NCBI GenBank assembly: GCA_964565645.1
Contig: CAZMFQ010000011.1
Location: forward strand, 1,717 to 65,716
Direction of reading: 5' to 3'
Origin: an uncultured Eubacteriales bacterium
GTDB taxonomy: Bacteria; Actinomycetota; Coriobacteriia; Anaerosomatales; JAHIQC01
DNA: 64,000 bases
Both the position numbers and the translations under genes were made by a program. The notes under the pieces were generated by a model, which worked only from the letters and a program-made list of their open reading frames with translations, ran no database searches and had not been told where the DNA came from. Position 1 is the first letter of the stretch. Each line of letters opens with the position of its first letter. Positions 115 to 18,396 of the stretch are shown piece after piece.

Positions 115-198
115 ATCGAACAAAGGCATCGAGCGGACGGCGTCAGGTAGTATCAACCTGAGCGGTCTTGACCGCCGCTCATGCCTAACACGTTCGAC
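115..198 (+). repeat. attC site 1 (84 bp, family C)
   Basis: ATCGAAC...GTTCGAC; arms ggcatcgagcggacggc / accgccgctcatgcc. Confidence 0.85.
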
Positions 199-203
199 AT
201 GCT

Positions 204-878
204 GTGGTCGCTCAAGGGGGATTCGTGGCATCACCACGCTGGTGGAATACCGAGCTCCACAAGACGTCGGTGGCGTTCTACGCGCTCCTGAACACTTTCG
301 CATCGGCAGGCGTTCCCTGTCTCTTCATATACGCCGGCTGGTTCATGGAGACACTCAGGGGCGAACCCATTCCGCAGGTACCTCCGTGGATGATTCTCGT
401 GTGTGCTGCAACGTTCGTGTACTACGTTGTCTGGCTTGACTCGCGCCTCCCTGCGGTATTGAAGTTGCGCGAGCTTGTTGTCGAAGACGGTGACTACATC
501 TTCCGTGCGCAAGCCAATGCCGCATTCGGTGGTCGTTTTGGGCTTATGATCCCGTTGCTGGGACTGGCACGAGCAATGATGATCGGCCTCGCTTTGTTCG
601 GGGTTGTGTTCGCGGCGACGTTCTTTGGGGAAGGCTCGGGCCTTGCCTGGCTCGGACTCGGCATGGTCTTGCTGGCCGGAGCGGGCAACTGGCTCTCGTA
701 TTCGGAAGAGCGGTTGGAGATGAACGCCGCACTCGATGCTTTCGCCAAGTCCCATGGGGCTGATGACGGGCCACTGCTCGATGTGGCGACGGCTATTCGG
801 AGCAGGATCGTGGTGCCCGGTCGTGAGTCCGCGTCTGATGTCGAACTAGCGCTTCGAGCAGACGGCCAGGAGCGCTAG
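204..878 (+). CDS. Hypothetical membrane protein (cassette); reads into attC2
   Basis: About 4 hydrophobic segments; C-terminus ELALRADGQER* is encoded by attC. Confidence 0.75.
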   Translation: MVAQGGFVASPRWWNTELHKTSVAFYALLNTFASAGVPCLFIYAGWFMETLRGEPIPQVPPWMILVCAATFVYYVVWLDSRLPAVLKLRELVVEDGDYIFRAQANAAFGGRFGLMIPLLGLARAMMIGLALFGVVFAATFFGEGSGLAWLGLGMVLLAGAGNWLSYSEERLEMNAALDAFAKSHGADDGPLLDVATAIRSRIVVPGRESASDVELALRADGQER

Positions 879-923
879 ACTCATGAGAGCGCTGAGCCGC
901 TGCTCAAGCGCAACACGTTAGGC
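840..923 (+). repeat. attC site 2 (84 bp, family A)
   Basis: GTCGAAC-tagcgcttcgagcagacggcc...gccgctgctcaagcgcaacac-GTTAGGC. Confidence 0.95.
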
Positions 924-940
924 GTAGAAGGGCGAGTGAC

Positions 941-1858
941 TTGGGGGGCGATCCGCGAAGCGATTCAGAGCGTGTCGAGGACTTCTTCTCCCAGGAGGAG
1001 GGGCCCGATGCGACGGGGCGCCCCTCGGGGGGAGCCGCGAGTGACGTCGTTCAGACCGTGCCTTCGCCCGGCTATCGAGTCGGTGTGAGCGCCATGTTCG
1101 TCCTCGTCCTTCTCTTGGACGTCCTCATCACTCCGCGACCGGACTCCTCGGCCTTTGCGGGAATGAGGCCGTCGTGGTTCGCGGGACTCGCGCTCTGCGC
1201 GTTCGGTCTGTGGGTTTGGCGCATGATGGACCGACGTACCGCCAGTATCACGCCGCGCGCACGAATGTACATGCTTCTCTCAATCATGCTGGGACCGGTC
1301 CTCGCGCGATTCATGACAGCACTTGGCCCAGACATCGCCGCATTCGTTCTCGGCTCACTCGCCGCAATCCTGATTTGGCTGGCAATGCTCATTGGTGCTC
1401 CACGTACCGCCGGTGAAGGATCCGGTCAATCGGCTCCTTCCGTCGTTGACCTGCTGCCAGCGCGCACGGTACTGAGGCCTCGCGACTTCATGGACTGGAT
1501 CGGAGCGTTCCTGTTCACGGGAGCGGGCGGGTACCTGCTCGTGACGATCCCCGCAGCGCAGCCGGACGCGGCGGCGCGCATCCCGGCGTGGCTTGTCGGC
1601 GCCGCCCTTGCGGCGGTCAGCCACATCACCATGACGCAGTGGGGAAGTCGACGGTTGCGCCCGTTGCCGTCATTGTGGTTTCCCCTCATCTTCATGGCCC
1701 TGTTCGTGGGACTCGCACTAGCTGTCCGAACGGGGACGGCGGTCACACTCGCAGTTGATCTGTTCATCTCGTCCATCGTCGTGTTCGTCACCCTTGAAGG
1801 CGCGTTCCACATCTGGAGGTTGATCCGCTCACCCCGGGCGCAGCGCGTTCACGCCTAA
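941..1858 (+). CDS. Hypothetical multi-pass membrane protein (cassette)
   Basis: About 8 hydrophobic segments; TAA stop lies in the R'' box GCCTAAC. Confidence 0.8.
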   Translation: MGGDPRSDSERVEDFFSQEEGPDATGRPSGGAASDVVQTVPSPGYRVGVSAMFVLVLLLDVLITPRPDSSAFAGMRPSWFAGLALCAFGLWVWRMMDRRTASITPRARMYMLLSIMLGPVLARFMTALGPDIAAFVLGSLAAILIWLAMLIGAPRTAGEGSGQSAPSVVDLLPARTVLRPRDFMDWIGAFLFTGAGGYLLVTIPAAQPDAAARIPAWLVGAALAAVSHITMTQWGSRRLRPLPSLWFPLIFMALFVGLALAVRTGTAVTLAVDLFISSIVVFVTLEGAFHIWRLIRSPRAQRVHA

Positions 1859-1937
1859 CAATGGCATCGAGCAGAACGCCAGGAGGTAGACTGACCTGTA
1901 AGGCATAGGGCGTCTGCTCATGCCAAACACGTTAGGC
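1853..1937 (+). repeat. attC site 3 (85 bp, family C)
   Basis: GCCTAAC-aatggcatcgagcagaacgcc...ggcgtctgctcatgccaaacac-GTTAGGC. Confidence 0.9.
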
Positions 1938-1955
1938 TGGCAAAGGGTGGGCTGG

Positions 1956-2474
1956 ATGAGACTTGCGGTTGTCGCATTCCCACAGTTGGATCCGGAAGCC
2001 CTCGCTGCAGTCGAGTCCTTTCGTGCCCGTCACGACCCAATGGCGCAGCGTATCCAGGCGCACCTCACGATGGTCTTCCCGGCGGATGCCGATGCCGCTT
2101 CTTTGGCGGCTGAGATTCGCCTGGTCGCGGCTTCGAGTGCACCCGTGGACGTCACACTTGCTGACATCGATGTGTCGACCGGTATCGACGGCAGAAGCTA
2201 CGTGCTCCTCGAGGCTGTCGGCGGCCGTCCCTCTATCGAGAAGATGCACGATCGGCTGTACTCCGGGATGCTCGCGGATCAACTTCGCCACGATGTCGAG
2301 TATGTCCCGCACGTAACACTGGCTGTCAGCGAGGACCCGGAGGAAGCCGCGAGGTTGGCAGATGGTCTACTCGCATCCTGGAGTCCTGTGTCGGGTCGCA
2401 TTGTCGAACTCGTGCTCTTGGATCTTGAGCGCGATCCCTTCCGCACTGTCGAGGTGTTCTCGCTCGGCGGGTGA
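1956..2474 (+). CDS. 2H phosphoesterase / 2'-5' RNA ligase family protein (cassette)
   Basis: Two HxT motifs (AHLTMV, PHVTLA); ATG 1956 chosen because the ORF-track start lies inside attC. Confidence 0.85.
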   Translation: MRLAVVAFPQLDPEALAAVESFRARHDPMAQRIQAHLTMVFPADADAASLAAEIRLVAASSAPVDVTLADIDVSTGIDGRSYVLLEAVGGRPSIEKMHDRLYSGMLADQLRHDVEYVPHVTLAVSEDPEEAARLADGLLASWSPVSGRIVELVLLDLERDPFRTVEVFSLGG

Positions 2475-2478
2475 GGCA

Positions 2479-2584
2479 GCCTAACACGCGCTTCAACCTG
2501 ATGAACCTTGGCCGTGTCAGGTATCGTGAGTAGCGACAGCGCGCGAGGCCTGCGGTTCACAGGTTAAGCGCAGACACGTTAGGC
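2479..2584 (+). repeat. attC site 4 (106 bp, family B)
   Basis: GCCTAAC-acgcgcttcaacctgatgaaccttggcc...ggcctgcggttcacaggttaagcgcagacac-GTTAGGC. Confidence 0.9.
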
Positions 2585-2592
2585 CGAATGGA

Positions 2593-3126
2593 GTGCCCAT
2601 GTATCGCCGAACGCGTGCTCTGACTGCGACGGTTCTCGTCTGTCTCTTGCTCATAGGTACCGTAGCCTGTACCCGTAGCAGCGGGAGCGAAGGCTCGGAA
2701 GCGCCGGACGGCCCGATGATACTTGGCCCCTACTCCGCCGACGTGGCGGTTCACCTCGGTGACGTCACCATCATGGTCACTGATGTTCAAGTGCTCGAAG
2801 CAACCGCAACGGCCGGCTCATTCGTCTACGGGCTCTCAAACCGTCCGGGAGAAGCCGCACCAGAAGGCAGCCGGTTCGTCGACATCACAGTGCAGGTGGA
2901 CGATCCGGCCCGACGATACTTCGAGGCCGGTGGTCTGTTCACCTCACCGGTGGTCTTGGCTGACGGCGAACGGGTCGAGGTCGGGGAGCGCGCACGTAGC
3001 GGTGGCGATAGCCCGCTCATCGAGGAGCGTATGGAGTTCGCTGTTCCAGAGACAGCCCGCGATGTTGTGTTGCAGCTTCCGCTTAGCGGGGAGTCGACGG
3101 CTGTCCCTTCCTTTCGCTTGTGGTAG
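2593..3126 (+). CDS. Putative lipoprotein, Ig-like DUF4352-like fold possible (cassette)
   Basis: Basic N-terminus, hydrophobic core, lipobox TVAC. Confidence 0.75.
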   Translation: MPMYRRTRALTATVLVCLLLIGTVACTRSSGSEGSEAPDGPMILGPYSADVAVHLGDVTIMVTDVQVLEATATAGSFVYGLSNRPGEAAPEGSRFVDITVQVDDPARRYFEAGGLFTSPVVLADGERVEVGERARSGGDSPLIEERMEFAVPETARDVVLQLPLSGESTAVPSFRLW

Positions 3127-3130
3127 ATCG

Positions 3131-3214
3131 GCCTAACTAGCGCTTCGAGCAGACGGCCAGGAGCGCTAGACTCATGAGAGCGCTGAGCCGCTGCTCAAGC
3201 GCAACACGTTAGCG
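3131..3214 (+). repeat. attC site 5 (family A)
   Basis: GCCTAAC...GTTAGCG, 84 bp. Confidence 0.95.
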
Positions 3215-3220
3215 GGACGC

Positions 3221-3625
3221 CTAGACGCGTTTCGCGCTGTGCGAGCGGATCCAGTCCGCGAGTGTCGGCTCATCGAGTGTCCCGGAGGCCAGAGCGACCA
3301 TCGTGGTCACTACTTCGGACTCCTCGGCGGTGAACTCGAGACCGTTGAGTCCCAGGAACACCGCCATCGCCACGAAGGCCACACGTTTGTTGCCGTCGAC
3401 GTAGGGATGATTGCTCGACAGCCCGAACCCGTACGCTGCAGCAAGCCCGGCCAAGTCCGTCGACGGTTCATGCGCCAGCTTCTGGCGTGGGCGAGCGAGT
3501 GCGGATTCGAGCAGGTCCTCGTCTCGCAGTCCCGGCAGCCCTCCATGGGTGAGCAGCATGTCGGTGTGCACTGCGTCGATGACCACCCGCGTGACCCAGC
3601 GCGGTTCTTGTTTGCTGTGAGCCAT
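3221..3625 (-). CDS. doc: Fic/Doc family toxin (death-on-curing)
   Basis: Fic motif HPYVDGNKR; 134 aa; directly downstream of AbrB-type antitoxin. Confidence 0.92.
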   Translation of the reverse strand: MAHSKQEPRWVTRVVIDAVHTDMLLTHGGLPGLRDEDLLESALARPRQKLAHEPSTDLAGLAAAYGFGLSSNHPYVDGNKRVAFVAMAVFLGLNGLEFTAEESEVVTTMVALASGTLDEPTLADWIRSHSAKRV

Positions 3626-3628
3626 GGG

Positions 3629-3856
3629 CTACTTGGCCAGTTCGCGCAATGCGTTGCGGTACGTGCGGGCCACGCTTGATGCGATCGCGAGCGCTTCTTC
3701 GGTGTCAGGATCGTAGGGGGTGAGCAGGATCCCGCGCTCCGTCTCGATGGCGATCACCGTGTCGCCGGCCTCGAGCTTGAGCCTGTCTGCCATGTCCTTG
3801 GGCAGCGTGGCGGCGATGGAGCCGCCGGCGCGCCGCAGTTTCACTCCCTGGGTCAT
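3629..3856 (-). CDS. AbrB/MazE/SpoVT family antitoxin
   Basis: KLRRAGGSIAATLPKDMADRLKLEAGD motif; GGAGG RBS before ATG 3856. Confidence 0.9.
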   Translation of the reverse strand: MTQGVKLRRAGGSIAATLPKDMADRLKLEAGDTVIAIETERGILLTPYDPDTEEALAIASSVARTYRNALRELAK

Positions 3857-3885
3857 CTTTGAGCCTCCGTAGATGGGTTGCATGG

Positions 3886-3907
3886 ATTGTAGCATACTTG
3901 TGCTACA
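3886..3907 (-). promoter_or_regulatory. TA promoter/operator: TGTAGCA-N6-TGCTACA inverted repeat overlapping extended -10 (TGcTACAAT, minus strand)
   Basis: Perfect 7-6-7 dyad, conserved in the second TA copy while flanking DNA diverges. Confidence 0.7.
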
Positions 3908-3915
3908 CAACCGCC

Positions 3916-3999
3916 CGCTAACTAGCGCTTCGAGCAGACGGCCAGGAGCGCTAGACTCATGAGAGCGCTGAGCCGCTGCTCAAGCGCAACACGTTAGAC
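3916..3999 (+). repeat. attC site 6 (family A)
   Basis: CGCTAAC...GTTAGAC. Confidence 0.95.
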
Positions 4000-4032
4000 C
4001 CACTGACTGCATTCGCCGCGAGGTAGGGACCC

Positions 4033-4422
4033 ATGGATCTGCTTCCTCACGAGGACAAGCTGATGCGTTGTCTGCTCTCGGGTGATGACCCTATCCTGGC
4101 GGCCCTCCGTGCCCAGTACGATCAGGCAATCGTCGTTGATCGTGAGTACACCCGCTCGGGATTCTTCACGACGTTCCACGTCCCGCAAGACCTCCAGGCT
4201 GTCGTGCCTGCAGAGTTGCACATCGGCGATGTATGGTTCGATCGTGACGATGATGATGCTGGCGGGGAGGCGATCTTGTTCGTCAGTTCCGGACGTCTCG
4301 CCGTGCTCGAAGGCGTTGCCAGAAGTGGGGTCTGGCCGGAGGACGCGCTCGTAGGGGACATCCACTACTTCGGCGAGTCGAGAGACCTTGCCGCGTTGCG
4401 GGAGTCGTGGGGGGGGGTCTAA
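4033..4422 (+). CDS. Hypothetical acidic protein (cassette)
   Basis: RBS aggtaggg; stop within R'' GTCTAAC; no family recognised. Confidence 0.75.
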   Translation: MDLLPHEDKLMRCLLSGDDPILAALRAQYDQAIVVDREYTRSGFFTTFHVPQDLQAVVPAELHIGDVWFDRDDDDAGGEAILFVSSGRLAVLEGVARSGVWPEDALVGDIHYFGESRDLAALRESWGGV

Positions 4423-4500
4423 CTAGCGCTTCGAGCAGACGGCCAGGAGCGCTAGACTCATGAAAGCGCTGAGCCGCTGCTCAAGCGCAACACGTTAGAA
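4417..4500 (+). repeat. attC site 7 (family A)
   Basis: GTCTAAC...GTTAGAA. Confidence 0.95.
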
Positions 4501-4580
4501 CCACCACGACAAGTCACGATGTCAGTCATCGGCGGTATGATGTTCTCGTGAGCATCGAACCCCCTGTGAGGTGAACTGCG

Positions 4581-4805
4581 ATGACCATCGAAGAATTGAA
4601 GCGCGAGGCACTGCGGCTCGACCCATCGGGTCGTGCTGATCTCGCCCGCGAGCTGCTCGAGAGTCTTGATGACCTACCTGAGTCGGAAGTCGAGCGCCTC
4701 TGGCTTGAAGAGGCTGAGCGCCGCCGGGTCGAGGTTCAGTCCGGCAACGTGACTCCGGTCCCGATGGATGAGGTCTTCGCAAGAGCGCGGGCAGCTCGCG
4801 CATGA
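4581..4805 (+). CDS. Addiction-module antitoxin component
   Basis: 74 aa; L..RADLARELLESLD...ERLWLEEAERR pattern; overlaps toxin start (ATGA). Confidence 0.85.
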   Translation: MTIEELKREALRLDPSGRADLARELLESLDDLPESEVERLWLEEAERRRVEVQSGNVTPVPMDEVFARARAARA

Positions 4806-5098
4806 GCCACTCGGTTGCGTTCGAGCCCACCGCCTCTCTTGAGCTCAACGAGGCGGCAGACTTCTACGACCTAGAGCGCCCTGGTTTGGGTACTGAGTTC
4901 CTCGACGCAGTCGAAGCCGCACTCATTGTCGTGGCAGACACGCCGGCCGCGTTCCCGATCGAACTGGGCGAGACGCGCAAGCGCGTCATCAGTCGATTCC
5001 CATACTCCATCATGTACTGGTTCGATGACGCTACCGTGCACGTTTCAGCCATCGCGCATCACAGGCAACGACCCCGGTACTGGGGTGACCGTCCTTAG
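4802..5098 (+). CDS. RelE/ParE family toxin
   Basis: 98 aa; RVISRFPYSIMY...VSAIAHHRQRPRYW. Confidence 0.88.
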   Translation: MSHSVAFEPTASLELNEAADFYDLERPGLGTEFLDAVEAALIVVADTPAAFPIELGETRKRVISRFPYSIMYWFDDATVHVSAIAHHRQRPRYWGDRP

Positions 5099-5109
5099 CT
5101 GTCGTGGGG

Positions 5110-5193
5110 TTCTAACTAGCGCTTCGAGCAGACGGCCAGGAGCGGTATTGTGATGAAAGCGCTGAGCCGCTGCTCAAGCGCAACACGTTGGGC
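5110..5193 (+). repeat. attC site 8 (family A, ggtattgtgatg loop subtype)
   Basis: TTCTAAC...GTTGGGC. Confidence 0.95.
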
Positions 5194-5267
5194 AGACCGA
5201 TGTGGCGGCGGGCAATCGCGGGATCCAGCAGCCTCACGCCTGAGCGCAAGCCATGAATGGGAGCTAG

Positions 5268-5666
5268 ATGGACTTCAGCAGTTGGCCAGCTATGGCTTAC
5301 ACGGTCTTGCCGGTCGTCGCATACGCGGGACTCCTGATTGGCGGGGTCTTCGTAGTCTATCGCCTCGTCACAGGGGCCTGGCACCCGGCGACCGCGGTTC
5401 CCATGGGATGGGCGTTATGCCCGGTCGCGCTCGTCAGTGGCATGATCGTGGCCACCATCGTGACTCCGGACTGGAACCCAATCACGATGTTCGTCTTCTG
5501 GATCCCATTCTTCACAATCGGCGCGTGGGCGCTCTACTTCTCAGTGTTCACGCAGCGCGGTCTCGACCGGGCGAAGGCCAGTCGGCGTGCGCTTCTATTG
5601 TCAGTTCCTTCGCTGCTCCTGGCCCCCTTGGTTGCGATGGCGGTACTGCTGTTTCCGGGTCTGTGA
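5268..5666 (+). CDS. Hypothetical membrane protein (cassette)
   Basis: 4 hydrophobic segments. Confidence 0.7.
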   Translation: MDFSSWPAMAYTVLPVVAYAGLLIGGVFVVYRLVTGAWHPATAVPMGWALCPVALVSGMIVATIVTPDWNPITMFVFWIPFFTIGAWALYFSVFTQRGLDRAKASRRALLLSVPSLLLAPLVAMAVLLFPGL

Positions 5667-5683
5667 TGGGCCATCGCTGGCTT

Positions 5684-5767
5684 GCCCAACTAGCTCTTCG
5701 AGCAGACGGCCAGAACCGCTAGACTCATGAAAGCGCTGAGCCGCTGCTCAAGCGCAACACGTTAGGT
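5684..5767 (+). repeat. attC site 9 (family A)
   Basis: GCCCAAC...GTTAGGT. Confidence 0.93.
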
Positions 5768-5795
5768 AGGGCGTAGATCGACGGGGGGCATTCGG

Positions 5796-6179
5796 GTGAT
5801 GCGAGGCCACTTGTTTGGACTGGATTTGCGCCTACTACTCCTGCTTGGCCTCAGCTCCCTGGTACTGCTTGCATGTTCACCCGGCTCACCGCCACGGCCC
5901 CAAGAGCAGCCGTATCGTTTTGATTCTGTTCGCTGGAAGCAGTCAATGCCGCATTCGCGCGATCTGGCGCAGGAGGTCATCGACAGGAGTCTGGTCAGTT
6001 CCATGACGCCCGAGCAGGTCTTCGAGTTGCTTGGTCCACCTGACTCATCTGCGATACCGGCGGACCTAGCTCCGGGGGACGAGTACCGAATCGGATTCTC
6101 GGTGGAGGCCACTCACGGTGTCGGGGAACTCGACTTACGCTTCTTGGGCGGGCGAGTGGCAGAGGCCGAACTGCACTGA
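5796..6179 (+). CDS. Putative lipoprotein with SmpA/BamE-like motif (cassette)
   Basis: Lipobox LLAC; MTPEQVFELLGPPD motif. Confidence 0.7.
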   Translation: MMRGHLFGLDLRLLLLLGLSSLVLLACSPGSPPRPQEQPYRFDSVRWKQSMPHSRDLAQEVIDRSLVSSMTPEQVFELLGPPDSSAIPADLAPGDEYRIGFSVEATHGVGELDLRFLGGRVAEAELH

Positions 6180-6202
6180 ATGCTGAGCGGTTGACGGCGC
6201 CT

Positions 6203-6286
6203 ACCTAACTGGCGCTTCGAGCAGACGGCCAGGAGCGGTATTGTGATGGAGGCGCTGGGCCGCTGCTCAAGCGCAACACGTTAGGA
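6203..6286 (+). repeat. attC site 10 (family A)
   Basis: ACCTAAC...GTTAGGA. Confidence 0.93.
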
Positions 6287-6302
6287 CTACCAAGGGGAGC
6301 GC

Positions 6303-6698: not shown

Positions 6699-6776
6699 CT
6701 AGCGCTTCGAGCAGACGGCCAGAACCGCTAGACTCATGAGAGCGCTGAGCCGCTGCTCAAGCGCAACACGTTAGAC
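6693..6776 (+). repeat. attC site 11 (family A)
   Basis: TCCTAAC...GTTAGAC. Confidence 0.95.
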
Positions 6777-6791
6777 ACCTTTGGGGGACAA

Positions 6792-7442: not shown

Positions 7443-7520
7443 CTAGCGCTTCGAGCAGACGGCCAGGAGCGCTAGACTCATGAGAGCGCTGAGCCGCTGC
7501 TCAAGCGCAACACGTTCGAC
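7437..7520 (+). repeat. attC site 12 (family A)
   Basis: GTCTAAC...GTTCGAC. Confidence 0.95.
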
Positions 7521-7535
7521 AAACGATGAAGGGCG

Positions 7536-8081
7536 GTGAGCTTCGCAGTGAGTCTACCCCCGACTCCACAGCGCACCACGCCTGGATTCTCGTTCTCAAT
7601 CGTCGAGCGCTCTCTTCGCGACTGCATTGCCGATCGCAAGTTTGGCGCGCCGGAGAAGGTAGTCGCCGCGGAGTTCTTCGGCGGCGAATGCGCATTCTGC
7701 GGGGCAACGCCAATCCAGCGTTGGGACCATCTGGTGGCCGTGTCGCAGGGCGGGGACACCGTACTGGGAAACATGGTCCCCGCTTGCGCACAGTGCGACG
7801 ATTCCAAGCGACATCTCCCGTTCGATGACTGGGCCCTCGGGGACTCAGCGGGGTCACCGCGCTCTCGTGGCGTGTTGGATCTCGAAGCGAGACTGGATCG
7901 GATTCGTGAGTACGTCGCCGTGTACGGCTACGCGGCGCGACAGCCGGAGCAACGTCTCACTCCAGACGAGCTTGAGCAGTACGAGTTGATCCGGCTTGAG
8001 TTACAGCGCCTTCGCCGTGACGTCGATAAGTTCATCGCGATGCATCGTGAGGCGTCAGCTACGGAATCCGCGTCCGGCTGA
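7536..8081 (+). CDS. HNH endonuclease (cassette, copy 1)
   Basis: CAFCG...WDHLVAVSQGG...NMVPACAQC, followed by a coiled-coil tail. Confidence 0.88.
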   Translation: MSFAVSLPPTPQRTTPGFSFSIVERSLRDCIADRKFGAPEKVVAAEFFGGECAFCGATPIQRWDHLVAVSQGGDTVLGNMVPACAQCDDSKRHLPFDDWALGDSAGSPRSRGVLDLEARLDRIREYVAVYGYAARQPEQRLTPDELEQYELIRLELQRLRRDVDKFIAMHREASATESASG

Positions 8082-8086
8082 TCGTT

Positions 8087-8170
8087 GTCGAACTAGCGCT
8101 TCGAGCAGACGGCCAGAACCGCTAGACTCATGAAAGCGCTGAGCCGCTGCTCAAGCGCAACACGTTCGAC
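8087..8170 (+). repeat. attC site 13 (family A)
   Basis: GTCGAAC...GTTCGAC. Confidence 0.95.
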
Positions 8171-8209
8171 AGAACGCGATGGCTCCCTCGGCGAGAAGGC
8201 AGGCATGCT

Positions 8210-8650
8210 TTGGTGGCAGACGTGGGGCAGGATATCGAAGGCTCGGGTGCCGCGATAGTTGCCCGACCGTGGTATCCCCCGTTCCTCGCTGGCTTGCTCA
8301 CCGCATCGATTTCGCTCGCAGCCTCATGGGTGGCGATGGTCGTGGTAGGACTACATGGATTGGCCTCGTATGCCTTCATCGTCTGCGGCGCGCTCATCTC
8401 TTGGGGAATCGGAAGTGCGCTCTCGCGCATGCGAGGCCTTGACGATCTGGACCACTGGCCCCACTGGCCGCTCAGCCTTGGCACCGTGCTTCCCCTCTTC
8501 GGATTCATCGGCTTCACCTACATGAGGGTCGAGTGGTTCGGATGGCACGAATCTGTGCCGATGGAGTCGGTGTTCTATCCCGCACTGGCATTCTCAATCG
8601 CCATGAGACCCGCGGTGAAGTTCAGACGCGCGGGGGGCAATGTCAACTAG
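8210..8650 (+). CDS. Hypothetical membrane protein (cassette, copy 1)
   Basis: 4 hydrophobic segments; near-duplicate at 17864. Confidence 0.78.
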   Translation: MVADVGQDIEGSGAAIVARPWYPPFLAGLLTASISLAASWVAMVVVGLHGLASYAFIVCGALISWGIGSALSRMRGLDDLDHWPHWPLSLGTVLPLFGFIGFTYMRVEWFGWHESVPMESVFYPALAFSIAMRPAVKFRRAGGNVN

Positions 8651-8658
8651 GGCGTCTT

Positions 8659-8742
8659 GTCGAACTAGCGCTTCGAGCAGACGGCCAGGAGCGGTATTGT
8701 GATGGGAGCGCTGAGCCGCTGCTCAAGCGCAACACGTTCGAC
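8659..8742 (+). repeat. attC site 14 (family A)
   Basis: GTCGAAC...GTTCGAC. Confidence 0.95.
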
Positions 8743-9936: not shown

Positions 9937-9947
9937 CGAGGGGGAAC

Positions 9948-10484: not shown

Positions 10485-10495
10485 CTGCGGCCCCG

Positions 10496-11378: not shown

Positions 11379-11397
11379 GCGTGTGCATGCTGGGTCC

Positions 11398-11481
11398 ATC
11401 TAACAAGCGCTTCGAGCAGAGCGCCAGGAGCGGTATTGTGATGAAAGCGCTGAGCGCCTGCTCAAGCGCAACACGTTAGGC
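11398..11481 (+). repeat. attC site 18 (family A variant)
   Basis: ATCTAAC...GTTAGGC. Confidence 0.93.
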
Positions 11482-11505
11482 ACAACTACTTCAAAGGGAG
11501 TCGTT

Positions 11506-12129: not shown

Positions 12130-12137
12130 GAGCGTGT

Positions 12138-12221
12138 ACCTAACTAGCGCTTCGAGCAGACGGCCAGGAGCGGTATTGTGATGAAGGCGCTGAGCCGCTG
12201 CTCAAGCGCAACACGTTAGAA
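12138..12221 (+). repeat. attC site 19 (family A)
   Basis: ACCTAAC...GTTAGAA. Confidence 0.95.
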
Positions 12222-12238
12222 GCACACAGGGGAGGCTC

Positions 12239-12667
12239 ATGGAGATCGGGCGCGTTCGAGAATCCGACCTGGATGCCATCGCCCGGCTCCACATGCACTT
12301 CTGGGGCGAGGCTTCGGACGTACCTGCTATGGCCGAGACGCTCACGCGACTGGAGGCCGATCGCGATCATGCACTTCTGGCGGCGCGCCTCGATGGCGTG
12401 TGCGTAGGCACCGCGACGGGGGTCGTCTGCCACGGATTGTATGGGGGCTCCGACTCCTATCTTGTGATCGAGGACGTCGTAGTCGACCCCGCGTGTCGTC
12501 GGCAGGGGATAGCGACCGCGCTCCTCGGCGAGTTGGAGCGTTTCGCTCGTGAGCATGACTGCAACCAGATGATTCTACTCACTGAGTCTGTCCGCGCGGA
12601 TGCGTCCGCGCTGTATGAGTCGGCCGGCTTCGAGTCCCGTTGGACGGGGTTCAAGAAGAAGCTCTAG
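12239..12667 (+). CDS. GNAT acetyltransferase (cassette)
   Basis: IEDVVVDPACRRQGIA; ALYESAGF. Confidence 0.88.
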   Translation: MEIGRVRESDLDAIARLHMHFWGEASDVPAMAETLTRLEADRDHALLAARLDGVCVGTATGVVCHGLYGGSDSYLVIEDVVVDPACRRQGIATALLGELERFAREHDCNQMILLTESVRADASALYESAGFESRWTGFKKKL

Positions 12668-12673
12668 CGTGGC

Positions 12674-12779
12674 TTCTAACAGGCGTTTCGACCCGATGAA
12701 CCTTGGCCGTGTGAGGTATCGTGGGTCGTGACAGCGCGCGAGGCCTGCGGTTCACGGGTCAAACGCAGAAACGTTCGAC
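12674..12779 (+). repeat. attC site 20 (106 bp, family B)
   Basis: TTCTAAC-aggcgtttcgacccgatgaaccttggcc...gttcacgggtcaaacgcagaaac-GTTCGAC. Confidence 0.9.
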
Positions 12780-12794
12780 AAACGATGAAGGGCG

Positions 12795-13340
12795 GTGAGC
12801 TTCGCAGTGAGTCTACCCCCGACTCCACAGCGCACCACGCCTGGATTCTCGTTCTCAATCGTCGAGCGCTCTCTTCGCGACTGCATTGCCGATCGCAAGT
12901 TTGGCGCGCCGGAGAAGGTAGTCGCCGCGGAGTTCTTCGGCGGCGAATGCGCATTCTGCGGGGCAACGCCAATCCAGCGTTGGGACCATCTGGTGGCCGT
13001 GTCGCAGGGCGGGGACACCGTACTGGGAAACATGGTCCCCGCTTGCGCACAGTGCGACGATTCCAAGCGACATCTCCCGTTCGATGACTGGGCCCTCGGG
13101 GACTCAGCGGGGTCACCGCGCTCTCGTGGCGTGTTGGATCTCGAAGCGAGACTGGATCGGATTCGTGAGTACGTCGCCGTGTACGGCTACGCGGCGCGAC
13201 AGCCGGAGCAACGTCTCACTCCAGACGAGCTTGAGCAGTACGAGTTGATCCGGCTTGAGTTACAGCGCCTTCGCCGTGACGTCGATAAGTTCATCGCGAT
13301 GCATCGTGAGGCGTCAGCTACGGAATCCGCGTCCGGCTGA
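12795..13340 (+). CDS. HNH endonuclease (cassette, copy 2)
   Basis: Translation identical to 7536..8081. Confidence 0.88.
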   Translation: MSFAVSLPPTPQRTTPGFSFSIVERSLRDCIADRKFGAPEKVVAAEFFGGECAFCGATPIQRWDHLVAVSQGGDTVLGNMVPACAQCDDSKRHLPFDDWALGDSAGSPRSRGVLDLEARLDRIREYVAVYGYAARQPEQRLTPDELEQYELIRLELQRLRRDVDKFIAMHREASATESASG

Positions 13341-13345
13341 TCGTT

Positions 13346-13429
13346 GTCGAACTAGCGCTTCGAGCAGACGGCCAGAACCGCTAGACTCATGAAAGCGCTG
13401 AGCCGCTGCTCAAGCGCAACACGTTCGAC
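13346..13429 (+). repeat. attC site 21 (family A, identical to site 13)
   Basis: GTCGAAC...GTTCGAC. Confidence 0.95.
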
Positions 13430-13478
13430 GGAGGCTACTCGTTCAGCGGGTCCGCAGGTCATCGCAGAGGGAGGGTTG

Positions 13479-14063
13479 ATGGCCGCACAGGAGGCAAATC
13501 GGTTCTCCCTCGCAGATGAGCGTCAGACCGTGACGTTCGTGCTGCGCGGTTGGGAGTTCCCTGAGCGACCTCAAGAGGGTACCGGCGGGTTCGTCGTATT
13601 CGGAATCGAGGCCTCCGGTGAGGCGTCGTGGACGGTCGCTGAGTTCACCGGAGCGTACTCCGACGACCTTCTCCACATGTGGCGGATGCTTCGCGCGTGG
13701 GCGGAGGTACCTATCACCACTGACGGAGCAATCGGATCCATGGAGCCGGGCCTCGTTGTCGAGGCGCGCCCAGCTACCGGAGGCGCTGTGCAAGTCGACG
13801 TGCAGGTCGATGGGAATCGTGCGTCCGTGACCGTGAACTCCGACGACCTCGGCCAGATGGCCGCTTGGCTCAAGGCTGAATTCTCTCGCCTCATCCCAGA
13901 GGAGCGATTCGTCCCAGCTCCCGCGCCCTCGCGGTTCCTCGGCATCGTGGTCGCGCCAATCGTCATGTGGTCGCTCGCCGTATTCATTGCCGTCGGACGG
14001 GGTTTCATTTGGGTCTTCGGTGGCCGCCCGCGTCGAACTAGCGCTTCGAGCAGACGGCCATGA
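13479..14063 (+). CDS. Hypothetical protein with C-terminal TM helix (cassette); stop inside attC22
   Basis: RBS ggaggg before ATG 13479; TGA at 14061-14063. Confidence 0.72.
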   Translation: MAAQEANRFSLADERQTVTFVLRGWEFPERPQEGTGGFVVFGIEASGEASWTVAEFTGAYSDDLLHMWRMLRAWAEVPITTDGAIGSMEPGLVVEARPATGGAVQVDVQVDGNRASVTVNSDDLGQMAAWLKAEFSRLIPEERFVPAPAPSRFLGIVVAPIVMWSLAVFIAVGRGFIWVFGGRPRRTSASSRRP

Positions 14064-14115
14064 GCGGTATTGTGATGGAAGCGCTGGGCCGCTGCTCAAG
14101 CGCAACACGTTAGAC
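14032..14115 (+). repeat. attC site 22 (family A)
   Basis: GTCGAAC...GTTAGAC; private gga>tga change. Confidence 0.95.
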
Positions 14116-14157
14116 GCATTACCGTACGAGTCAGTGGCAGATGGTAGATTGGCACGA

Positions 14158-15318
14158 ATGAGTGAACGAGCAACATCCGTCACACCGCATCTGCTCACAT
14201 GGGCTCGTGAGCGGGCAGGTCTCTCGCTGTCCGATGTTGCAGAGTACATCTCAAAAGACCCGGCGGATGTCGCTGCCTGGGAGGCAGGCGAGGCTTGGCC
14301 AACCTTCAAACAGCTCGAAAGACTCGCAGACGGCCTCTTCCACCGTCCGGTCGCGCTCTTCTTCTTCCCTGAGCCGCCTGAAGAGCCACCAACCCAGGAG
14401 GAGTTCCGCACTCTTCCAGACTTCGATATTCAGGACCTGCAGGCTGATACGCGGTATGCGGTTCGGCTTGGGCGATCCTATCAAGAGTCACTGCGTGAGC
14501 TGACTGGAAGCGCGAACCCGTCGTCACGCAAGCTCTGGCGCGATATGAGGCTATCTGCTTCATCGGACATAGTGGCCGCAGCGATCGAGCTCCGTAAGTA
14601 CCTCGGCGTCTCGTTGGATCAACAAAGAGCATGGGGCAGCTCGGAGAACGCGATGGCCGGCTGGAGAGCCCGCATCGAAGATGCAGGTGTGTACGTCTTC
14701 AAGAGGTCATTCAAACAGCGTGAAATCTCTGGATTCTGTCTGACCGATGACGAGTTTCCGATCATCATGGTCAACAACAGCAATGCCTTCACCCGCCAGG
14801 TGTTCACGCTATTCCACGAGGTAGCACACATACTCTTCGGCGTTAACAGCATAACCACGGTGGATGGTCGTTTCGTTGACCACATGTCCGGCGCAAGCCA
14901 ATCCGTAGAGGTTGCATGCAACAGGTTCGCAGCTGAGTTCCTAGTGCCTGAAGCCGCCTTTCCGTGGAACGCCGTTAATCCGAGTGATCCACTCACCTCG
15001 ATCGCCCCAATCGCGGCACGATTCAACGTTAGCCGTGAAGTCATTCTTCGACGAATCGCTGACAAGGGGCTCGTGGATGCCGATACGTATCGCAAGTGCG
15101 TTAGCGAGTGGGCCGCCGCATCGTTGAACCGTCCGCCGGGTGGTGACGGAGGCAATTACTACAACACGCAGGCTGCCTACCTTGGGGATGCTTACCTACG
15201 GCTCGCCTTCTCGCGCTACAGGGCCGGGGTCATCAGCGTTGCAGATCTCTCGGAGCACCTCGGCGTCAAGGCGCGGAACATTGCCAAGCTTGAGGACAAG
15301 GTGGCGAGCAGAATCTGA
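14158..15318 (+). CDS. XRE-family HTH fused to ImmA/IrrE Zn-metallopeptidase
   Basis: LTWARERAGLSLSDVA...WEAG HTH; HExxH motif (FHEVAH); EVACNRFAAEFLVP. Confidence 0.9.
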   Translation: MSERATSVTPHLLTWARERAGLSLSDVAEYISKDPADVAAWEAGEAWPTFKQLERLADGLFHRPVALFFFPEPPEEPPTQEEFRTLPDFDIQDLQADTRYAVRLGRSYQESLRELTGSANPSSRKLWRDMRLSASSDIVAAAIELRKYLGVSLDQQRAWGSSENAMAGWRARIEDAGVYVFKRSFKQREISGFCLTDDEFPIIMVNNSNAFTRQVFTLFHEVAHILFGVNSITTVDGRFVDHMSGASQSVEVACNRFAAEFLVPEAAFPWNAVNPSDPLTSIAPIAARFNVSREVILRRIADKGLVDADTYRKCVSEWAAASLNRPPGGDGGNYYNTQAAYLGDAYLRLAFSRYRAGVISVADLSEHLGVKARNIAKLEDKVASRI

Positions 15319-15794
15319 TGTCCTCGATCTACGTCTTTGACACCAACTCATTCAGGGTATTTGGCAACTACTACCCAGAAGCCTTCCCGTCGTTTTGGAT
15401 GAGCATTGAAGACTTGGTGCGAGATGGAAGAGTGATTTCGTGTAGCGAGGTGGCCAAGGAGCTTGAGCTTCAAAGCCCGTCAGAGCACCTGAATCTCTGG
15501 GTTGGTGGCCACGGCGAGCTCTTCTCGGACCCCTCGTCTGCCGAGATGCAAGTGGTCGCCGATGTCTTCCGTGTACCTCATTTCCAGCAGCTGATCGGAG
15601 AGAAGCAGCGGCTGAAAGGCCTGCCGGTCGCGGATCCGTTCTTGGTTGCCCGGGGCGCCGTTTTGGGCGGCTGTGTGGTCACCGAAGAGGTGCTGAAGCC
15701 GCACGCCGCCAAGCTTCCGAATGTTTGTGAGCATTTCAGCGTAAGGTCGACGAACGTTCAGGGCTTCTTGGCTGAAGTGGGATGGAAGTTCTGA
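15318..15794 (+). CDS. PIN-like domain protein (DUF4411-like)
   Basis: YVFDTNS, ADPFLVA, VVTEE, KLPNVC; start overlaps upstream stop (TGATG). Confidence 0.85.
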   Translation: MSSIYVFDTNSFRVFGNYYPEAFPSFWMSIEDLVRDGRVISCSEVAKELELQSPSEHLNLWVGGHGELFSDPSSAEMQVVADVFRVPHFQQLIGEKQRLKGLPVADPFLVARGAVLGGCVVTEEVLKPHAAKLPNVCEHFSVRSTNVQGFLAEVGWKF

Positions 15795-15796
15795 GC

Positions 15797-15889
15797 GTCT
15801 AACAAGCGCTTCAACCTGACGCGCAGAAGCGCCTTCGCGCTTCGCGCAGTAAGCTGCAGGCGCGCAGGTTAAGCGCAAACACGTTAGAC
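15797..15889 (+). repeat. attC site 23 (93 bp, unique loop)
   Basis: GTCTAAC-aagcgcttcaacctgacgcgc...gcgcgcaggttaagcgcaaacac-GTTAGAC. Confidence 0.9.
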
Positions 15890-15911
15890 ATTGACGCAGG
15901 TAACGGGAGCC

Positions 15912-16559
15912 ATGAAGACCACCTCTCGGCCGATAGTCGCCCACACAGAATCCGGACCGAAACTGCTGTCGGTGCCCTGGCGTAACGTTCCGCTCCCAAC
16001 GGGCGGTATGCCCACTCGCCGTGACATCAGACGCGGCTCTCCTCGGCTCGTCATCGAGTTGCCACTCACCACCGGCGGACAAGTCGTCTTGGCTGGCGTG
16101 GTCTGTGCGTTCCTTGGCTTAGGGACGCTCCTCATCGTCCGACTGATCGATGGCGGAGTAAGCAGGTCGGACACACTCTTCGTCGCCGCACTCGAGCTGT
16201 TCCTGTTTGTACTGATAGTCACGGCGGGGGGTCTTTGGTCAAAGCGGGAGATCTTCGAGATTGACTCACGCTTCGTGACTGTGACGCGTGGCGACGCCCT
16301 AGTCGGATTCTCTCCGCGAGCTCAGTGCCTCGACGCGTGGCTGCTCCCTGTGCCCAAAGGTCGTGGTGCGCGCATCGCCCGCCGCCTCGTTGCAGCTCCA
16401 CGGATCGCACTCGGGGTCGATGGCGGGTCCTATATGCTGTTTGGCGCAGGGGTATCCGATCACGCGGCGTCAGAGGTGCTGTCGCTTGTTGCAGGTTTCA
16501 TGGTTGAGAATCCGCCTGAGCCCGGCTTTGATTTCGCAGTCGAGAGCGGTGCGCGATGA
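15912..16559 (+). CDS. Hypothetical membrane protein (cassette)
   Basis: 2 TM segments plus soluble C-terminal part; RBS gggag before ATG 15912. Confidence 0.7.
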   Translation: MKTTSRPIVAHTESGPKLLSVPWRNVPLPTGGMPTRRDIRRGSPRLVIELPLTTGGQVVLAGVVCAFLGLGTLLIVRLIDGGVSRSDTLFVAALELFLFVLIVTAGGLWSKREIFEIDSRFVTVTRGDALVGFSPRAQCLDAWLLPVPKGRGARIARRLVAAPRIALGVDGGSYMLFGAGVSDHAASEVLSLVAGFMVENPPEPGFDFAVESGAR

Positions 16560-16593
16560 GGGATGGTCATCCTGCGTGTCCCGACGGCGTCAT

Positions 16594-16698
16594 GTCTAAC
16601 CCCGGCTTCGACCCTGACAAACCTTGGCCGTGCAATGTAGTGTGGGTAGCGACCGCGCGAGGCCTGCGGTTTGCAGGTCAAGCCGAAACACGTTAGAT
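16594..16698 (+). repeat. attC site 24 (105 bp, family B)
   Basis: GTCTAAC...GTTAGAT. Confidence 0.9.
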
Positions 16699-17205
16699 GC
16701 ACCACTCGTCTTCAGCGGTGAGCATTCGGACCATCAGCAGGTCCTCGTCCTGCTCGCCAATGGTCGTGAAGCCGAGTCTCGTGTAAAGCCTGGACGCGGG
16801 ATTGTCACGGTCGACGCTGAGTGAGGTCTTTGCGTATCCGGCTGTCGCCAGTAGGCCGAACAGACCCCGCATCAGACGCGTCCCGATTCCTCGGCCGCGA
16901 TACTCCGGCAGAAGCGATACCGCGAGCTCCGGTGTCGCACCATCGACATAGCCGTATCCGCGCGGTTCGCCCCCGAGTACGCGGGCCCATGCGACGCCCA
17001 CCACTCGTCCGTCCGCATCCGCGACAAGCCCGTAGTCGTCGGGGCATTGGCCAAAGGCGTCGACGTATATCCTCACGCCCGGCTCGTCGACGACGCTGCG
17101 CGGTATCGGCTGAAGGGGGTCACGCTGGTGGACAGCGAGGTAGAGGAACCCCCTTAGAAGCGGGTAGTCCCTGGGCTCGATCTGCCTGATGGTCACTTCG
17201 TGCAT
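16693..17205 (-). CDS. GNAT acetyltransferase (inverted cassette gene)
   Basis: PELAVSLLPEYRGRGIG; NPASRLYTRLGF; stop is the TTA of the R' box. Confidence 0.88.
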   Translation of the reverse strand: MHEVTIRQIEPRDYPLLRGFLYLAVHQRDPLQPIPRSVVDEPGVRIYVDAFGQCPDDYGLVADADGRVVGVAWARVLGGEPRGYGYVDGATPELAVSLLPEYRGRGIGTRLMRGLFGLLATAGYAKTSLSVDRDNPASRLYTRLGFTTIGEQDEDLLMVRMLTAEDEWCI

Positions 17206-17266
17206 GGTTGTCGCCGCCTCGCTTGATACTGGCAGTCCGAATCATACGTCGAACCGGTCCATTGGC

Positions 17267-17350
17267 ATCTAACTAGCGCTTCGAGCAGACGGCCAGAACC
17301 GCTAGACTCATGAGAGCGCTGAGCCGCTGCTCAAGCGCAACACGTTCGAC
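17267..17350 (+). repeat. attC site 25 (family A)
   Basis: ATCTAAC...GTTCGAC. Confidence 0.95.
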
Positions 17351-17365
17351 AGAGACGAGACAGGC

Positions 17366-17707
17366 TTGGCCAGTTCCCGGTACGTGCCGCTCACCGATGT
17401 GTGGCCCGCACACGGACTCGTTTCGGTCGTTCTCGCATGTCTTACTGACGCAGGGTTCCATCCGCTGTCCGAATGTGACTCGCGCGGCTGGTTCTACGTT
17501 CGTGGGTGGCCACTGGGATCCCAGCGACCGACCACTCTCTGGGTCCCTGAGCAAGAACGCGATCTGGCGCTGGCCTTCCTCGACGCACCATTTGATGCTG
17601 AAGAACCCGAGGTGCTCGAATCAGCGGGCCTGTGGGCCTGGGTCGCGGCGCATCGGCGTGGAATCTTCGTAGCGTGGCTCGCAATGATCCTGCTGAACGG
17701 CATGTAG
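17366..17707 (+). CDS. DUF2007-like small protein with C-terminal TM (cassette)
   Basis: SVVLACLTDAGFHP...TLWVPEQERDLALAFL pattern. Confidence 0.65.
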   Translation: MASSRYVPLTDVWPAHGLVSVVLACLTDAGFHPLSECDSRGWFYVRGWPLGSQRPTTLWVPEQERDLALAFLDAPFDAEEPEVLESAGLWAWVAAHRRGIFVAWLAMILLNGM

Positions 17708-17740
17708 ACCACCGCCGGCGCGTCGTGCAATCGCGTCCTT

Positions 17741-17824
17741 GTCGAACTAGCGCTTCGAGCAGACGGCCAGGAGCGGTATTGTGATGAAGGCGCTGGGCCG
17801 CTGCTCAAGCGCAACACGTTCGAC
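17741..17824 (+). repeat. attC site 26 (family A)
   Basis: GTCGAAC...GTTCGAC. Confidence 0.95.
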
Positions 17825-17863
17825 AGAACGCGATGGCTCGGTCGGCGAGAAGGCAGGCATGCT

Positions 17864-18304
17864 TTGGTGGCAGACGTGGGGCAGGATATTGAAGGCTCGG
17901 GTGCCGCGATAGTCGCCCGACCGTGGTATCCCCCGTTCCTCGCTGGCTTGCTCACCGCATCGATTTCGCTCGCAGCCTCATGGGTGGCGATGGTCGTGGT
18001 AGGACTACATGGATTGGCCTCGTATGCCTTCATCGTCTGCGGCGCGCTCATCTCTTGGGGAATCGGAAGTGCGCTCTCGCGCATGCGAGGCCTTGACGAT
18101 CTGGACCACTGGCCCCACTGGCCGCTCAGCCTTGGCACCGTGCTTCCCCTCTTCGGATTCATCGGCTTCACCTACATGAGGGTCGAGTGGTTCGGATGGC
18201 ACGAATCTGTGTCGATGGAGTCGGTGTTCTACCCCGCACTGGCGTTCTCCATCGCCATGAGGCCCGCGGTGAAGCTCAGGCGCGCAGGGGGCAATGCCAA
18301 CTAG
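17864..18304 (+). CDS. Hypothetical membrane protein (cassette, copy 2)
   Basis: 3 aa differences from 8210..8650. Confidence 0.78.
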   Translation: MVADVGQDIEGSGAAIVARPWYPPFLAGLLTASISLAASWVAMVVVGLHGLASYAFIVCGALISWGIGSALSRMRGLDDLDHWPHWPLSLGTVLPLFGFIGFTYMRVEWFGWHESVSMESVFYPALAFSIAMRPAVKLRRAGGNAN

Positions 18305-18312
18305 GGCGTATT

Positions 18313-18396
18313 GCCGAACTGGCGCTTCGAGCAGAGCGCCAGGAGCGATATTGTGATGAGAGCACTGAGCCACTGCTCAAGCGCAACACGTTCGAC
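18313..18396 (+). repeat. attC site 27 (family A, several substitutions)
   Basis: GCCGAAC...GTTCGAC. Confidence 0.9.

Follow-up and report, generated by a model that had tools for sequence, protein, structure and literature searches.

Adjacent attC sites pair across cassettes in a probable distal integron array of a putative Actinomycetota chromosome

The DNA examined here is a 64-kb stretch (the window) of the 110,689-nt contig CAZMFQ010000011.1 from an uncultured bacterium, and all scans cover the window only unless other loci are named. Its first 24.7 kb form an array bounded by attC sites of the kind found in integrons, and the subject of this report is how the cores of these sites pair with one another. 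Each attC comprises an inverse core, R'' (RYYYAAC), and a core, R' (GTTRRRY), around an imperfect inner palindrome. Most are 84 nt long, with a few variants of 85–106 nt. There are 33 sites, of which 27 are intact and six are decaying. The intact sites span positions 115–18396, all on the plus strand, and a motif scan for the right-hand attC end (..ACGTT..) returns 27 copies at 188–18386, likewise all on the plus strand. Because attC1 starts at position 115, right behind the end of an earlier cassette, the array exceeds the left edge of the window.

The R'' heptamers were assigned blind to the neighbouring site, using only the internal symmetry of each attC. Three methods were used: gapped alignment that set the 24 nt following each candidate AAC against the reverse-complemented 24 nt that precede GTT; a 27-site MAFFT alignment, in which the R'' heptamers all fall in columns 1–7; and a search of the whole window, with filters off, with a covariance model (CM) built from the MAFFT alignment. 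All three yielded identical coordinates. Two other ways of placing R'' were rejected. Ungapped arm matching misplaced several sites owing to bulged bases, and choosing the lowest folding energy was biased to longer candidates; gapped arm alignment replaced both.

With the CM, the intact sites score 53.7–103.7 bits, and AAC and GTT are invariant in 27/27. No extra attC was found inside the long cassettes by this search, and its minus-strand matches are weak (13.6–27.4 bits) self-matches that occur only at the coordinates of plus-strand sites. The CM adds six weaker sites downstream (attC28 to attC33). No credible attC was found past 24.7 kb; between 24.7 and 40 kb there is one weak CM match, inside the Arr gene, which was considered as an attC remnant and taken as chance. 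The sites are listed below with R'' / R' and CM score.

115–198, plus strand: attC1, ATCGAAC / GTTCGAC, 76.9 bits
840–923, plus strand: attC2, GTCGAAC / GTTAGGC, 99.8 bits
1853–1937, plus strand: attC3, divergent 85-nt type, GCCTAAC / GTTAGGC, 78.5 bits
2479–2584, plus strand: attC4, 106-nt type, GCCTAAC / GTTAGGC, 68.9 bits
3131–3214, plus strand: attC5, GCCTAAC / GTTAGCG, 98.4 bits
3916–3999, plus strand: attC6, CGCTAAC / GTTAGAC, 99.9 bits
4417–4500, plus strand: attC7, GTCTAAC / GTTAGAA, 103.7 bits
5110–5193, plus strand: attC8, TTCTAAC / GTTGGGC, 99.9 bits
5684–5767, plus strand: attC9, GCCCAAC / GTTAGGT, 91.8 bits
6203–6286, plus strand: attC10, ACCTAAC / GTTAGGA, 98.1 bits
6693–6776, plus strand: attC11, TCCTAAC / GTTAGAC, 98.0 bits
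7437–7520, plus strand: attC12, GTCTAAC / GTTCGAC, 101.6 bits
8087–8170, plus strand: attC13, identical to attC21, GTCGAAC / GTTCGAC, 101.6 bits
8659–8742, plus strand: attC14, GTCGAAC / GTTCGAC, 101.0 bits
9303–9386, plus strand: attC15, GTCGAAC / GTTAGCC, 94.2 bits
9831–9936, plus strand: attC16, 106-nt divergent type, GGCTAAC / GTTAGAA, 53.7 bits
10496–10579, plus strand: attC17, TTCTAAC / GTTAGAT, 101.3 bits
11398–11481, plus strand: attC18, ATCTAAC / GTTAGGC, 98.2 bits
12138–12221, plus strand: attC19, ACCTAAC / GTTAGAA, 99.5 bits
12674–12779, plus strand: attC20, 106-nt type, TTCTAAC / GTTCGAC, 61.7 bits
13346–13429, plus strand: attC21, GTCGAAC / GTTCGAC, 101.6 bits
14032–14115, plus strand: attC22, GTCGAAC / GTTAGAC, 97.7 bits
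15797–15889, plus strand: attC23, 93-nt type, GTCTAAC / GTTAGAC, 75.5 bits
16594–16698, plus strand: attC24, 105-nt type, GTCTAAC / GTTAGAT, 62.1 bits
17267–17350, plus strand: attC25, ATCTAAC / GTTCGAC, 98.3 bits
17741–17824, plus strand: attC26, GTCGAAC / GTTCGAC, 103.6 bits
18313–18396, plus strand: attC27, GCCGAAC / GTTCGAC, 87.5 bits
20959–21031, plus strand: attC28, remnant found with the CM, R''/L'' lost
21235–21339, plus strand: attC29, decayed, GGCTAGA / GTTGGCG, 15 bits
22042–22125, plus strand: attC30, CGCTAAC / GTTGGGC, 67.4 bits
23863–23963, plus strand: attC31, decayed, GTCCAAC / GTAAGGC, 33.4 bits
24171–24254, plus strand: attC32, decayed, GCCCAAC / CATAGGC, 59.9 bits
24550–24641, plus strand: attC33, decayed, last recognisable site, GCCTAGC / GTTAGGC, 24.1 bits

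The intact sites delimit 26 complete cassettes on the plus strand (positions 193–18390), each of which starts at the TT that follows one R' G and ends at the G of the next R'. Across these cassettes, R' of site n is the perfect reverse complement of R'' of site n+1 in 24 of the 26 adjacent pairs, and each of the other two pairs carries one mismatch. The original prediction had given the same count, which was reproduced exactly when R'' was placed blind, as were its outer coordinates (192, the G of attC1 R', and 18319, the last base of attC27 R''). Its statement that the two cores of a single attC often mismatch also proved accurate, both in the example given (840–923, GTCGAAC...GTTAGGC) and overall, since R' and R'' of the same site match perfectly in just 7/27 cases. 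Other offsets, from -6 to +6, give 1–6 perfect matches. A comparison with shuffled cassette order, proposed at the same time and scripted here for all sites, yielded a mean of 3.95 matches (standard deviation 1.73) and a maximum of 13 when the R'' order was shuffled 200,000 times, and the observed 24 was never reached. If the pairs are approximated as independent, at about 0.15 per pair, we infer a chance probability of ~1e-17 for 24/26.

The first exception, between attC18 and attC19, is a mismatch at position 7 (GTTAGGC versus GTTAGGT), and the second, between attC26 and attC27, is a mismatch at position 6 (GTTCGAC versus GTTCGGC). The paralogous cassette at 8165–8736 has the R'' heptamer GTCGAAC, and therefore the R'' of attC27 (GCCGAAC) holds a T>C change. 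Two caveats apply to the counts: only heptamer positions 4, 6 and 7 (3/7) are informative, because GTT/AAC and position 5 never vary, and three cassettes are paralogous to others. Neither changes the pairing result.

The complementarity reaches 9 nt, two past the heptamer. Among the 26 pairs, agreement is 0.96–1.0 at positions 1–8 and 0.81 at position 9, and from position 10 it is at the level of chance (0.19–0.38). The run of matches is 9 nt long in 16/26 pairs, 8 nt in four and 10 nt in four. Position 10 on the 5' side of the cassette, which has no complementary partner, is an A in 58/72 cassettes when the window is pooled with related loci L002–L016.

Related arrays were found by scanning one genome per species with a 20-nt piece of attC. 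The same attC type occurs at nine loci in five metagenome-assembled genomes (MAGs), labelled Actinomycetota, Anaerosomatales, Coriobacteriia, 'Actinobacteria bacterium UBA2286' and Caldisericota. Pairing at these nine loci is perfect in 39/46 cases and has at most one mismatch in 44/46, compared with 8/56 for cores of the same site; shuffles of the related-array cores give a mean of 4.1 and a maximum of 14. The 9-nt profile is similar (n=46), at about 0.93–1.0 followed by 0.80 at position 9. The Caldisericota MAG contig (JAUSAI010000115.1, L006) carries ten attC of the window type in a different phylum; either a cassette pool is shared across phyla, or this contig was binned wrongly. The core GTTCGAC, located in the window at 192, 7514, 8164, 8736, 12773, 13423, 17344, 17818 and 18390, is also present in the related MAG arrays.

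The paired architecture of the sites is well defined. For the whole attC structure, pairing holds in 96.7% of alignment cells, and both sides have changed at 13/22 pairs, a level that 0/500 shuffles attained; sliding the partner by 1–3 columns as a control leaves just 25–34% of cells paired. The inner stem is 98.8% paired, with compensatory changes at 11/16 pairs across sequence types. When the bottom strand is folded with DNA parameters, the R''/L'' arm shows two one-base bulges, a T and a G separated by 6 bp, and a GTGTT spacer beside the R box stays unpaired. By analogy with published work, these bulges may take part in strand choice. We also rebuilt the attC of each cassette as it would exist in a circle, by joining the cassette's own R''...G to its own TTRRRYNN. 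The rebuilt bottom-strand hairpin is more stable in 25/26 cassettes, with a mean difference of -4.0 kcal/mol, and the mean fold energies are -28.1 kcal/mol for rebuilt sites, -24.1 kcal/mol for sites in the array and -23.3 kcal/mol for random 5' ends.

These energies bear on one alternative, in which the array arose through homologous recombination or slippage between repeats and the core pairing reflects selection for local hairpins such as transcription terminators. The attC sites are indeed long and similar enough for homologous recombination, and their hairpins are stable (about -20 kcal/mol). However, the complementary partners lie 0.4–1.8 kb apart and form no local hairpin in place, and the hairpin that does form in place is the less stable form. 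This explanation also leaves the offset of +1 unaccounted for, and it falls short at the borders of the duplicated cassettes described below, where the left junctions share ~2 nt before GTT, which is too little. We therefore regard it as very improbable.

The cassettes are 474–1774 nt long and contain one or two open reading frames (ORFs) each, mostly on the plus strand. Those that figure in the argument or have recognizable contents are as follows.

3209–3993, minus strand: toxin-antitoxin cassette with a Doc/Fic toxin (3221–3625, PF02661) and a MazE/AbrB-type antitoxin (3629–3910, PF04014)
4495–5187, plus strand: toxin-antitoxin cassette with an antitoxin (4581–4805, PF09720) and a ParE toxin (4802–5098, PF05016)
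7515–8164, plus strand: HNH-endonuclease cassette, copy A (PF01844)
8165–8736, plus strand: cassette paralogous (96.2%) to 17819–18390
12774–13423, plus strand: HNH-endonuclease cassette, copy B, recognized by identity to copy A and located behind an unrelated attC type
14110–15883, plus strand: two-gene cassette with a helix-turn-helix and ImmA/IrrE peptidase gene and a DUF4411 gene (PF06114, PF01381, PF14367)

The two copies of the HNH cassette show what moves. They are 100% identical over 650 nt and are followed by the same attC, including the loop subtype. The attC sites upstream of them (84 nt in one case, 106 nt in the other) are unrelated except for the 2 nt that precede the G. What was duplicated is thus a gene plus its downstream attC, and with only ~2 nt shared before the G, homologous recombination is ruled out for that junction. 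The reverse-oriented Doc/antitoxin cassette at 3209–3993 has a paralogue at 21334–22119, and similarity between the two stops at position 4 of the following R'. The HNH left junction and the end of the Doc paralogues together place the exchange point within the interval from -2 to +3 of R' (AC-GTT). The interval includes G^TT without resolving it. The 100% identity of the HNH copies indicates recent movement, and the presence of the same cassette at a second position lends indirect support to excision as a circle and reinsertion.

These duplicates also bear on a second alternative, in which the mobile unit is the ORF only, bounded by a 9-bp terminal inverted repeat (GTTxxxxNN ... NNxxxxAAC) and moving like a miniature transposon between fixed host repeats of ~70 nt. 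The 5' end of each cassette and its R'' do form a 9-bp inverted repeat that flanks the ORF, as such a unit would require. Yet the HNH duplicates carry the whole downstream attC with its subtype loop and sit behind upstream repeats of two unrelated types, the repeats are of several sequence types, each moving together with the gene upstream of it, and no transposase is present. Of the explanations considered here, this is the one to which we give the least credence.

The arrangement expected of integron cassettes is that the mobile unit consists of TTRRRY(NN), the gene or genes, and the cassette's own attC up to the G of its own R'. Cassettes would enter as circles through site-specific recombination of the folded bottom strand of attC, with exchange inside the GTT of R'. 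Insertion would split the R' of the circle, such that the G is kept at the 3' end of the cassette and TTRRRY becomes the cassette 5' end, fused to the previous attC. On this model, the variable bases of R' match the R'' of the next site because insertion splits the R' box. For the HNH cassette, the predicted circle junction would join CAAGCGCAACACG, ending in the G of its own R', directly to TTCGACAAACGATG, beginning with its own TTRRRY. In characterized integrons, strand exchange occurs between bases 1 and 2 of GTTRRRY (PMC8876359), and R' is split on insertion, with its RRRY set by the identity of the downstream cassette (PMC11014356). An IntI-type tyrosine recombinase, a cut precisely at G^TT, a substrate that is single-stranded and a circular intermediate would likewise come from published integron biology.

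The original prediction held that circular cassettes were inserted by crossover at G^TT and that these are true integrase-assembled units. Crossover within the R' core is supported by the pairing, the boundaries of the duplicates and the folds of the rebuilt circles, with the exact position G^TT taken from the published work (PMC8876359, PMC11014356). The claim that the units are integrase-assembled finds support in pairing at offset +1 and in duplicated cassettes that carry their downstream attC. We conclude, with a probability of about 0.93, that positions 1 to 24.7 kb are the distal stretch of an integron cassette array on the chromosome, and that the integrase-proximal end of this array is located past the left window edge.

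The contents of the array are in keeping with this conclusion. Beyond the cassettes listed, Pfam matches in the array include two GNAT acetyltransferases, a HEPN protein, a 2'-5' RNA ligase-like protein, a methyltransferase and a trypsin-like peptidase, and about half of the cassette ORFs have no Pfam match. Toxin-antitoxin, GNAT, HNH and HEPN genes together with many unmatched ORFs are typical of sedentary integrons. GC content at third codon positions is about 0.70 in cassette ORFs (0.68–0.80) versus about 0.87 (0.80–0.92) in the core genes flanking the array on the right, which is consistent with an origin of the cassettes in a different gene pool.

The closest known counterparts are sedentary chromosomal integrons, such as the Vibrio cholerae superintegron with its Vibrio cholerae repeat (VCR)-type attC. 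Shared features are a long one-directional array of short cassettes with homogeneous attC, many ORFs of unknown function, toxin-antitoxin genes (one pair reverse-oriented) and GNAT genes, base composition differing from the host core, and R' variable bases set by the downstream cassette. Unlike the Vibrio cholerae superintegron, the array has an Actinomycetota rather than a Proteobacterium as host, its integrase is not seen in the window, and its attC is 84 nt (variants about 93–106 nt) with about 60% GC, frequent GTTCGAC and an R stem of 9 bp rather than 7. Class 1 mobile integrons and their 59-base elements share the RYYYAAC ... GTTRRRY cores, the imperfect inner palindrome, the cassette boundary inside the core and the complementarity between the inverse core and the core bases with which the cassette itself begins. 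They differ in that the window array is chromosomal, shows no clinical-type resistance cassettes and has homogeneous rather than diverse attC. A third comparison is with attC-site clusters that have no integron integrase (CALIN; Cury et al. 2016, PMC4889954), which the window resembles in having at least two attC and no intI in 64 kb.

Several observations weigh against the assignment of the array to an integron. Neither tblastn with an IntI1 probe (used as a probe only) nor Pfam reveals an integron integrase in the 64-kb window, and PF00589 has no match among the 30 ORFs outside the intact array, which include every predicted gene >250 amino acids. There is no intI in the related loci fetched from the genome collection and from metagenome contigs, most of which are filled by arrays or end inside them. 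Likewise, neither attI nor the promoter Pc was found in the window, where the array is cut by the left edge, or in the related loci. By the definition used in IntegronFinder, the window alone is a CALIN. The R' heptamer is GTTCGAC in 9/27 sites, and its C at position 4 departs from the GTTRRRY consensus. The host phylum is without complete integrons in surveys of complete genomes, in which Actinobacteria have a few CALINs and a single In0 (PMC9024848); a review lists Actinobacteriota among the phyla in which integrons have been detected (PMC8618304). Finally, circles or current activity would be beyond what sequence alone can show.

The CALIN assignment may be no more than an effect of where the window ends, because the array leaves the window on the side where intI would sit. 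The orientation of the attC sites places the expected attI and intI left of attC1, beyond the window edge; judged by the R'' of attC1 (ATCGAAC), such an attI is predicted to end in GTTCGAT. A 488-kb MAG contig that carries a three-gene unit homologous to one in the window (see below) ends inside its own array. A metagenome scan returned just two short attC-bearing contigs, with no integrase, and exact look-up of the ParE and Doc proteins of the window returned no record.

A further alternative accepts the same origin and concerns only the present state, namely that the array is now a fossil CALIN in a genome without a functional integrase, its cassettes immobile. This would agree with the lack of intI in 64 kb, with the distal third of the array, which is decaying with cores lost or mutated, and with the record of Actinobacteria complete genomes, which hold only few CALINs and no complete integron (PMC9024848). 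Against a fossil state, the 27 proximal sites remain intact and retain a conserved GTT/AAC as well as 9-bp matches, and the identical HNH duplicate points to recent movement. In addition, the array runs past the left edge, where intI is expected, and only 64 kb of the 110.7-kb contig are visible. On balance we consider this state unlikely, though a serious contender.

The host assignment rests on the genes right of the array. These are ordinary chromosomal genes, including those for an ABC transporter, Dus, an aminotransferase, a carbonic anhydrase and two large CWB2 wall proteins. The closest named relatives of Dus (70–78% identity) are from MAGs labelled Actinomycetota, Coriobacteriia, Anaerosomatales and HGW-Actinobacteria. 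Judged by these flanking core genes, the host is probably an Actinomycetota of the Coriobacteriia/Anaerosomatales kind. The two CWB2 proteins, encoded at 48861–53627 and 60395–63097, are very large proteins of the secreted or wall type, with cell-wall-binding CWB2 repeats at the C-terminal end, one of 1588 amino acids with FG-GAP, cadherin-like and Ig domains and one of 900 amino acids with a beta-helix. Such wall proteins fit a Gram-positive-type envelope.

The pairing principle has been known since early work on 59-base elements (Hall, Stokes and Collis), and core/inverse-core complementarity is said to have been what first argued for circular cassettes. As the classical footprint of integron recombination at G^TT, already stated in the literature (PMC11014356), the pairing rule is not new. 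Its value here is that it validates 26 units as true integron cassettes and gives exact boundaries for their annotation. The regular 9-bp match could also sharpen the calling of cassette boundaries and probe the need of this family's integrase for R-box pairing.

Whether sedentary integron array or CALIN, the object itself has an undescribed attC type and an unusual host phylum. This host context outweighs the pairing finding, given 33 attC beside core genes in Actinomycetota and the same attC type in other Actinomycetota MAGs. It bears on the apparent near-absence of integrons in Actinobacteria, Firmicutes and Alphaproteobacteria (PMC9024848, PMC4889954), a gap that may partly stem from the sampling of cultured, complete genomes. 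A tentative extension, which we consider possible without favouring it, is that the array belongs to a sedentary integron lineage that is native to anaerobic Actinomycetota, was active recently and has its own attC type (84 nt, 9-bp R stem, frequent GTTCGAC). If so, there would be a cassette pool exchanged among Gram-positive-type anaerobes and a not yet described integrase.

In the decaying right-hand third of the array, the R''/L'' half of site 28 is gone, and 4/5 of the other distal sites have a mutated GTT or AAC. Adjacent cores there are still within 1–2 mismatches of each other. At sites 28 and 29 (20959–21339), R' is GCTAGCC and R'' is GGCTAGA, such that the second GTT base, which does not normally vary, and the AAC base that partners it are both changed and still pair. 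This co-changed triplet could be due to chance in a decaying region, or to a cassette that moved with a variant triplet.

Between the intact and decaying parts lies one further feature.

18397–21031, plus strand: composite unit ending in the attC28 remnant

It begins with a 110-nt fragment shared with MAG locus L002, followed by genes for a TetR regulator, a Zn-dependent dehydrogenase/quinone reductase and a small membrane protein. In MAG UBA2286, the three-gene TetR unit (94–95% DNA identity) forms an intact 2.8-kb cassette with matching cores, GTTGGGCgg / ccGCCCAAC. The unit occurs in array contexts at L016, L028 (duplicated by L029) and L027, the last identical to the window; L002 has only the first 110 nt plus weak homologues. 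A compensatory core change between the unit in the window and L002 (GTTCGAC) and in UBA2286 (GTTGGGC/GCCCAAC) was considered and rejected, as the 5' ends are not orthologous: the window unit has the extra 110-nt fragment, and the core remnant of the unit itself is ATAGGC (~18503–18510). The metagenome contig L027 (Logan ERR3839026, 3191 nt) encodes proteins 100% identical to those of the window at 18.2–21.3 kb, and therefore the same or a near-identical strain was present in sample ERR3839026. Just upstream of the TetR gene, at 18633–18672, lie two copies of the palindrome TCTAACAGCGTTAGA, which is probably a TetR operator; each half resembles an inverse-core/core pair (TCTAAC...GTTAGA).

Right of the last attC, positions 25700–35100 hold small accessory genes of cassette-like kinds without attC: DUF1801 (25739–26269), the rifampin ADP-ribosyltransferase Arr-ms (29189–29734), GNAT (33996–34490) and an Imm5-like gene (34483–35028). 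The DUF1801, GNAT and Imm5-like genes are also present in an array-like region of MAG contig L028, with the Imm5-like proteins 73% identical. The accessory genes in this region may represent old cassettes that lost their attC sites through erosion.

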